A stretch of DNA of 64,000 nucleotides from a virus (lineage: Duplodnaviria > Caudoviricetes). The stretch spans positions 2,897 through 66,896 of IMG/VR virus record IMGVR_UViG_3300028792_000005; one strand, written 5' to 3'. Below are positions 10,711 through 11,968 of this stretch, one piece after another. Every line of letters begins with the position of its first letter. Within the stretch, counting starts at the first letter, position 1. The translations under genes were made by a program, and so were the position numbers. The notes beneath the pieces are model-generated. The model was not told the origin of the DNA. It did no database searches and was given only the letters and a program-made list of their open reading frames with translations.

Positions 10711-11373
10711 TCACACCTTCGTCATGCGCGCCTTCGCCTGCTCCATCGTCTCCTCTCCGGCCCACACGCGCTCCAGCCCGTACTGGGCCGCGTGCTCGTA
10801 GGAGCAGAAGCCACCCTTCGTCCAACCCTCGACCTTGCCCACGCTCTTGCGCTTGCAGGAGCGCGATCCGTGGCGGTTGCTCGGGTCAGCCACGGTCCCG
10901 TTGCAGGGCGGCTGCGGGACGGTGCCGCGCGCCGTGAGTCCCTGTGCCGCGTAAGCGGCTCGCTGCGCACGCATCCGCTCGGTGCTGGTGTTCACGCGCT
11001 CGGCTGCGGGGATCTTGTGCTCGATCACCCGCACAGGCTCGGGCGTGCCGTTGGCGATCTGCTCAACCGTGTGCGCGAAGTACTCGATCTTGTGCGCGAG
11101 GTGGCGCATGTCGCTTTCGCACTCGTCCGCGAGCGACGCCAGCGCCTGCTCGATCTCGTCAGCCTCGGTCCAGGCGACCGCCTCCGCGCAGGCGTCCAGG
11201 AGAACCTGCGGGGTGGCGTACTGCGGGGTGATCACACGCACGTTGGTGCGGGTGGGCGGTGTGGCGAACGACGCGAGGAACGCCGCGTCAGGCGTGGTGG
11301 TGGTGGTGGTGTGCGTGTGCGCCTTGTGCACGTACACGAGAGCAACGAGCGCGAGCATGAGCAGGTACAGCAT
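10711..11373 (-). CDS. N-terminally anchored/secreted protein, 220 aa
   Basis: GGAGG SD + ATG 11373; hydrophobic N-terminus then poly-Thr; C-terminal C..C..C..C. Confidence 0.72.
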   Translation of the reverse strand: MLYLLMLALVALVYVHKAHTHTTTTTTPDAAFLASFATPPTRTNVRVITPQYATPQVLLDACAEAVAWTEADEIEQALASLADECESDMRHLAHKIEYFAHTVEQIANGTPEPVRVIEHKIPAAERVNTSTERMRAQRAAYAAQGLTARGTVPQPPCNGTVADPSNRHGSRSCKRKSVGKVEGWTKGGFCSYEHAAQYGLERVWAGEETMEQAKARMTKV

Positions 11374-11415
11374 GGTGGCCTCCAAGGGCCTCGTGCGCAG
11401 GTGCTACCTGCGCGT

Positions 11416-11495
11416 GTTGGCATCATCAGCGTGAGTGCTACTCACGGACACGCGCTCAGCACGCTGGTGTGCGTGTGAGCGCGTGTTTCGCCTAC
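11416..11495 (-). ncRNA. Type II hammerhead ribozyme; predicted cleavage between 11447 and 11446
   Basis: GGC-GAAA, 11-bp stem III ACACGCGCTCA/TGAGCGCGTGT, GUC site, 7-bp stem I CGTGAGT/ACTCACG, CUGAUGA core, one extra U, then GCC closing stem II. Confidence 0.85.
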
Positions 11496-11968
11496 TTGCT
11501 GGCGAGCGCGGCGACAGCGGCCTTGCGCTGCGCGGGCGTGAGCGTGGCGAGCGCGGCCTTGACCGCAGCCGCGTTGCCGAAGCGACCCGTCCAGGCGTCG
11601 CCCGTGAGCCCCTGCGCGAACAGCGCCTTGTTGAGCGGGCTGAGCGCCTCCTTGCGCGCCTTGTACGCCTCACGCGCCTGCGCTGCGGCCTGGTCCTTCG
11701 CGGCCTGCTGTGCGGGCGTGAGCGCCTGCCGCGCCTCGTGCTTCGCCAGGGCCGCTCCCGCGAGGGGACGCTTGCCCGTGGTGGTCTTGCCCTTGCGCGC
11801 CTTGCGCTCGACCGCGAGGTCGGCCACGGGGGCGGGCGTGCTGTGCTGCCCCTCGACGAGCCGTGCGAGCACGCCCGTGAGGGCGGTCAGCGCCTCGGTC
11901 TGCTGCGCCTGCGTGTGGGCGAGCGCCTCGACCTGAGCGGCGAGCGTGGTGACGGTGATGCGAGCCAT
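11492..11968 (-). CDS. Ala/Lys-rich hypothetical protein, 158 aa
   Basis: AGGAGG SD; N-terminus shared with 4884..5300. Confidence 0.75.
   Translation of the reverse strand: MARITVTTLAAQVEALAHTQAQQTEALTALTGVLARLVEGQHSTPAPVADLAVERKARKGKTTTGKRPLAGAALAKHEARQALTPAQQAAKDQAAAQAREAYKARKEALSPLNKALFAQGLTGDAWTGRFGNAAAVKAALATLTPAQRKAAVAALASK

Follow-up and report, generated by a model that had tools for sequence, protein, structure and literature searches.

In prophages, hammerhead ribozymes lie on either side of individual genes or of short blocks of genes (Perreault et al. 2011, PMC3088659). The prophage hammerheads cut polycistronic transcripts of about 2 kb in vitro, an A. tumefaciens set cuts in vivo, and the role proposed for them is processing into single-gene mRNAs (PMC3088659). 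A pseudoknot between loop I and the 3' tail is found in most type II hammerheads, though not in all, and in the type II ribozymes that were tested it was required for fast cleavage at 0.5 mM Mg2+ (PMC3088659). In Desulfovibrio vulgaris, three type II hammerheads cleave in vivo, and the locus for which a gene map is shown adjoins genes of bacteriophage origin (PMC8782182). Moreover, viroid hammerheads with core deviations exist, and stems II of one or two pairs occur too (PMC3088659). The CChMVd (+) hammerhead has an extra A between A9 and G10.1, and according to PMC3705267, which summarizes De la Pena and Flores 2001, the extra A lowers the rate moderately, C or G at the same insertion is harmful, and a U at that place (A10 to U) raises the trans-cleavage rate 3- to 4-fold.

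Here, we describe a candidate hammerhead in a 64,000-nt stretch of viral DNA (the window), which makes up most of an IMG/VR contig of 66,896 bp that is estimated to be 60% complete. The candidate has the core, the permutation, the very short open stem II and the GUC triplet of the type II hammerheads of Perreault et al. and of the Rfam family RF02276 (Hammerhead_II), and like them it sits between same-strand phage genes, with the cutting of long phage transcripts as the proposed role. Unlike the type II consensus, it has no loop I-tail pseudoknot, a 3-nt loop instead of a UGG-containing loop, a long stem III (16 bp) and no RF02276 score, and it is a single copy in a 67-kb contig, whereas arrays are found in many phages. 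With the CChMVd (+) hammerhead, the candidate shares one inserted nucleotide at the A9/G10.1 junction. Viroid and satellite hammerheads differ in belonging to plant viroid or satellite RNAs, in having another stem topology and in serving rolling-circle replication, not mRNA processing. We infer that the candidate cleaves, and we put the probability that it is a genuine, working type II hammerhead, transcribed within a multi-gene minus-strand message, at about three in four.

RESULTS

Layout of the candidate. Read base by base, the minus strand from 11495 to 11416 runs GGC, GAAA, stem III, GUC, stem I, CUGAUGA, U and GCC. The parts are as follows.

11490..11495, minus strand: 5' strand of stem II; GGC at 11492-11490 pairs with GCC
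11495-11494 and the 11416 side, minus strand: possible extension of stem II; GU at 11495-11494 would add 2 bp past an A.A mismatch
11487..11489, minus strand: core nucleotides G12, A13 and A14
11448..11486, minus strand: stem III hairpin; 11 perfect bp, then 5 bp, with a 6-nt loop
11447, minus strand: C17, of the GUC triplet; by the hammerhead rule, cleavage is predicted on its 3' side, at 11447/11446
11430..11446, minus strand: stem I hairpin; 7 bp with the loop AGC
11423..11429, minus strand: core nucleotides C3, U4, G5, A6, U7, G8 and A9 (CUGAUGA)
11422, minus strand: extra U between A9 and G10.1
11416..11421, minus strand: 3' strand of stem II; GCC at 11421-11419, then the A.A mismatch and two possible pairs

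All conserved positions of the core strand CUGAUGA and of GAA are intact. Three helices meet at the core, of 7 bp (stem I), 3 bp (stem II) and 11 bp with a further 5 bp (stem III); stems I and III are capped by loops and stem II is open, which is the type II permutation. The closing pair of stem III, A15.1-U16.1, is A11486-U11448, and a bulged C lies on the 3' side between the 11 bp and the 5 bp. The first pair of stem II is G11421-C11490, and U 11422 intervenes between A9 and G10.1. A sequence-only reading of this DNA had proposed the same order of GAAA, stem III, GUC, stem I and CUGAUGA-U-GCC, and each element is found where it was placed; its stem II of GCC/GGC, with 2 bp past an A-A mismatch and an extra U, is likewise present. 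A search by eye for the loop I-to-3'-tail pseudoknot gave no complementarity between the loop AGC and the tail AACACGCGC, and no other stem I-stem II tertiary contact is recognizable in the candidate.

Genomic setting. The candidate sits in a 118-nt spacer, among the longest nearby, inside a tightly packed array of minus-strand genes on a contig with a GC content of 58 to 69%. Four features surround it.

11492..11968, minus strand: upstream gene; 158 aa, an Ala/Lys-rich orphan with GC by codon position as expected of a minus-strand gene
11395..11413, minus strand: hairpin 2; 8 bp with the loop AGC, and an apex, GUAGCAC, that it has in common with stem I
11377..11390, minus strand: small hairpin GGCC-CUUGGA-GGCC, which carries the ribosome-binding site of the downstream gene
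10711..11373, minus strand: downstream gene; 220 aa, orphan family; the N-terminus is hydrophobic, and a conserved motif with Cys and His lies at the C-terminal end

The UAG stop codon of the upstream gene (11494-11492) shares bases with the 5' strand of stem II, and the AUG of the downstream gene is at 11373-11371. Both flanking ORFs are real minus-strand genes by GC3 periodicity, and both have homologues in metagenomes, 12 for the 158-aa protein (49 to 87% identity) and 11 for the 220-aa protein (31 to 63% identity). The 220-aa family has an invariant C-terminal block, S..RM.A.RA....GLTARG..P...C, followed by CK and C...H; the block may be a small module that binds zinc or nucleic acid. One of the 220-aa homologues has a precomputed Pfam PF28217 match.

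This uncultured, high-GC phage is far removed from those described so far, and its proteins are almost all orphans. Pfam and PHROGs gave no match for seven left-arm proteins, both flanking proteins included, and blastn of a 2-kb region against GenBank phages gave none either. Related loci were not found when each flanking protein was searched singly against viral contigs, when the alignment of the 158-aa family was searched against metagenome contigs, or when that of the 220-aa family was searched against metagenome, viral and genome contigs. When ten further large ORFs were compared with PHROGs, the sole match was an ATP-dependent DNA ligase (ORF 1454-2380, minus strand). Eight large plus-strand ORFs (351 to 774 aa; 29192-62820) had no PHROG match at 1e-5 and are presumably structural or replication genes.

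The site listing for the window has no promoter-like or terminator-like site in the spacer. Termination was considered for the spacer hairpins and ruled out, as no U-run follows any of the three and no such site is listed. The arm as a whole is rich in hairpins, with 22 inverted repeats in 12 kb. We note that a perfect 14-bp hairpin (TGACGCGTGACGTG and its complement, with 8 nt between the arms) lies at 5459-5494, in a 184-nt spacer downstream of a 621-aa gene and upstream of the next gene.

The motif exceeds chance expectation. The candidate could in principle be a coincidence, in which two unrelated intergenic hairpins happen to be flanked by GAAA, UC and CUGAUGA. The region is rich in hairpins, the candidate has no Rfam match, and some 250,000 windows were surveyed, a scale at which rare coincidences are expected. 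We wrote a descriptor that covers all three hammerhead permutations (types I, II and III) with stems of at least 4, 3 and 4 bp, and its only match in the window was the candidate. Dinucleotide-preserving shuffles (n = 400) gave 0.015 matches per window and at most 14 stem bp, compared with the 21 observed. Real sequence that was reversed and not complemented, a control that preserves natural hairpins and destroys the motif, gave 0 matches in 784 kb, compared with 36 in the forward direction in the fetched loci plus the candidate. Moreover, the fold of 11380-11505 has a z score of -5.75 relative to shuffles. By a rough estimate of our own, the odds of obtaining the core, the spacing and stem II once two adjacent hairpins are given are about 1e-8, which amounts to well under one expected event over all of the windows surveyed. 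Finally, the A-GGC...GCC-A flanks, the extra U, the GUC and the 7-bp stem I, its 3-nt loop and its G-U...C apex all match a natural subclass that is described below. Coincidence thus has a very small probability, and we prefer the type II hammerhead.

Rfam and the extra U. The sequence-only reading had named a search with Rfam Hammerhead_II as a check, and the outcome was negative. No Rfam hammerhead family matched the candidate at the gathering threshold, nor at E<=10 when 401 bases were searched, and genome-wide RF02276 found two unrelated places of 12 to 13 bits only. The gathering threshold of RF02276 is 37 bits, an operational cut-off and not a defining feature of the class. A loop I that contains UGG and a tail able to pair with that loop are central to the model, and both are absent from the candidate. 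Moreover, the negative result is uninformative for the candidate because the covarying copies in two other viral contigs, described below, fail the same threshold.

The extra U after A9 is widespread. A search of IMG/VR with the pattern GGCGAAA..TC..CTGATGATGCC returned 74 viral loci. About 25 of them adopt a type II hammerhead fold in which the stem sequences are unrelated and A9 is followed by the same U. Ten of these 25 or so reach the RF02276 gathering score with the extra U in place, and two of them (L061 and L054) score 51.8 bits; the extra U is therefore part of a natural family. The claim of the sequence-only reading that core insertions of this kind are known in natural variants is borne out by these viral loci and by the tolerance of a U in the viroid hammerhead. 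In typical members, the pseudoknot pairs are GGUC/GACC, GGCC/GGCC and GCCA/UGGU.

Two of the viral contigs from the survey carry further variation. In one (L074, 5163-10510, plus strand), a contig of 109 kb, five type II hammerheads occur in a span of 5.4 kb; the number of extra bases between A9 and stem II varies among them from none through one (U or C) to two, and several of them have a near-identical stem III loop region (UCUUUCACACCGG). In the other (L016, plus strand), the three copies at 234-323, 1404-1490 and 2446-2531 read CCGAUGA, with U4 replaced by C, beside a canonical CUGAUGA copy at 544-629. U4 is strictly conserved in the core, and CCGAUGA is a natural variant that recurs at this position.

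Relatives with a short-loop stem I. Two IMG/VR contigs, L014 (3300046517_001446) and L049 (3300049856_000274), carry four hammerheads each. The arrays lie at L014:10857-11937 and L049:7274-8262, both on the minus strand, with copies 300 to 400 nt apart and each copy just upstream of a ribosome-binding site. Like the candidate, the copies have GGC or GGGC followed by GAAAC, a stem III of 10 to 11 bp, GUC, a stem I of 7 bp with a 3-nt loop and a G-U...C apex, and CUGAUGA-U-GCC, and they lack the pseudoknot; most of them have the U after A9. They differ in having a 4-bp stem II, a conserved tail, AUCAG, that is complementary to the core, and four copies per contig. The candidate for its part has a 3-bp stem II, another tail, an extended stem III and an extra hairpin ahead of the ribosome-binding site. 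None of the L014 and L049 copies reaches the RF02276 gathering score. In an alignment of seven of them, the copies were 95% paired, 11 of the 21 pairs changed on both sides, and the covariation score was reached by none of 500 shuffles.

A covariance model built from these seven copies found the candidate over its full model length with 45.5 bits (E about 9e-12), a score of which the core part is circular, as the pattern that retrieved the training loci had been derived from the core of the candidate itself. The next-best match in the window had 11.5 bits. Loci that pass Rfam gathering scored 25.9 to 40.5 bits with the same model, all below the candidate. A sequence-only model made from the same alignment gave the candidate 12.2 bits; about 33 bits therefore come from base pairing, and the stems of the candidate share no sequence with those of the training set. 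The interpretation of the site as a type II hammerhead, first made from the sequence-only reading, is upheld by the core, the permutation, the gene strand, the position in the spacer and the 45.5-bit match. A pattern for the 17-nt stem I hairpin plus the core returned 6 loci only, and the exact combination of this stem I and core is therefore rare.

Within the L014 and L049 arrays, the tail AUCAG complements CUGAU of the core, and the sole copy that reads CUGACGA has the tail GUCAG. This single covariation event hints that a tail-core helix is conserved in these arrays and that it sequesters the catalytic strand.

Predicted fold and rate. In the partition function, stem III has pair probabilities of 0.88 to 1.0 and stem I of 0.75 to 0.99. 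The probability of stem II, with its 3 GC pairs, is 0.03 because a 5-bp helix with the upstream coding sequence competes, and a fold forced to be hammerhead competent lies 1.7 kcal/mol above the minimum free energy. Members of the class retain A-GGC...GCC-A with a stem II of 3 bp only.

The candidate might be a hammerhead by descent that is slow or dead; its intergenic hairpins (the 16-bp stem III, stem I and hairpin 2) would then serve mainly as mRNA stabilizers, RNase III-type processing sites or U-less terminators, with little contribution from self-cleavage. [quoted passage not shown] The conserved core is intact, however, which would be unexpected in a decaying relic, and the L014 and L049 hammerheads, which have the same stem I and are also without the pseudoknot, have been retained in arrays with compensatory changes. 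Moreover, the absence of a U-run after the three hairpins, and of a terminator-like site in the spacer, speaks against termination. We consider a slow or dead hammerhead unlikely and favor a working one.

Alternatively, the ribozyme might be regulated, with hairpin 2 or an alternative helix toggling it between active and inactive states. Several complementarities are of the required kind. The tail ACACGCGC (11415-11408), which overlaps hairpin 2, repeats the 5' strand of stem III exactly, and by pairing with 11455-11448 it could displace that strand. Near the apex of stem III, 11469-11460 is complementary at 9 of 10 positions to 11433-11424, which comprises the 3' strand of stem I and CUGAUG, and the apexes of stem I and hairpin 2 both read GUAGCAC. 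The conserved tail of the L014 and L049 copies, complementary to their core, points in the same direction. Stems III and I nevertheless dominate the ensemble, with probabilities of 0.99 to 1.0, and the alternatives appear in neither the minimum free energy structure nor the centroid. The arm is rich in CACGCG-type repeats, in which complementarities are expected by chance, and with 5 copies in the window, compared with 7 expected, GTAGCAC shows no enrichment. Kissing between the two AGC loops was also considered and is ruled out, as only 2 bp are possible. The sequence-only reading had suggested that hairpin 2 may switch or dock, and this suggestion gains no support from the ensemble or from complementarities that a repeat-rich arm would be expected to hold. 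Regulation by such a toggle is highly improbable, and an unswitched type II hammerhead remains our preferred reading.

DISCUSSION

How the candidate would act follows from its place between two genes. Stems III and I would fold during transcription, and the three-way junction would be closed by GGC/GCC, the short stem II, with the single U after A9 bulged out. Self-cleavage would follow at the 11447/11446 junction, on the 3' side of C17. It would leave the mRNA of the upstream 158-aa protein with a terminal hairpin of 16 bp that bears a 2',3'-cyclic phosphate, and it would give the mRNA of the downstream 220-aa protein a 5'-OH immediately at the stem I hairpin. Cleavage may thereby uncouple the two genes and shield both mRNA ends from end-dependent RNases. 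We infer cleavage and these effects on the two mRNAs; what the analysis shows is the motif, together with its fold, strand and position, and that it fits a natural subclass which covaries.

The candidate and the L014 and L049 copies perhaps belong together as a distinct, uncurated subclass of phage type II hammerheads that RF02276 systematically misses, a grouping that we regard as possible but on balance doubtful. Equally tentatively, it might be recognized by a 3-nt loop and a conserved G-U...C apex on a stem I of 7 bp, by the U bulged after A9 and by the lack of a pseudoknot. If the subclass is real, either stems I and II are aligned by a different tertiary contact, or the ribozyme is a deliberately slow or regulated cutter.

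The candidate is a new example of a kind of element known in phages since 2011. The curated RF02276 model misses pseudoknot-less copies with a short-loop stem I, and counts of phage hammerheads are therefore underestimates. Moreover, type II hammerheads of phages commonly carry the bulged U after A9 that had been noted earlier in the hammerheads of viroids and satellites. Neither the copies missed by Rfam nor the frequency of the bulged U alters the understanding of hammerheads. Ultimately, if the ribozyme is active, it would be a further case in which a phage separates neighboring genes on one transcript by means of a self-cleaving RNA.
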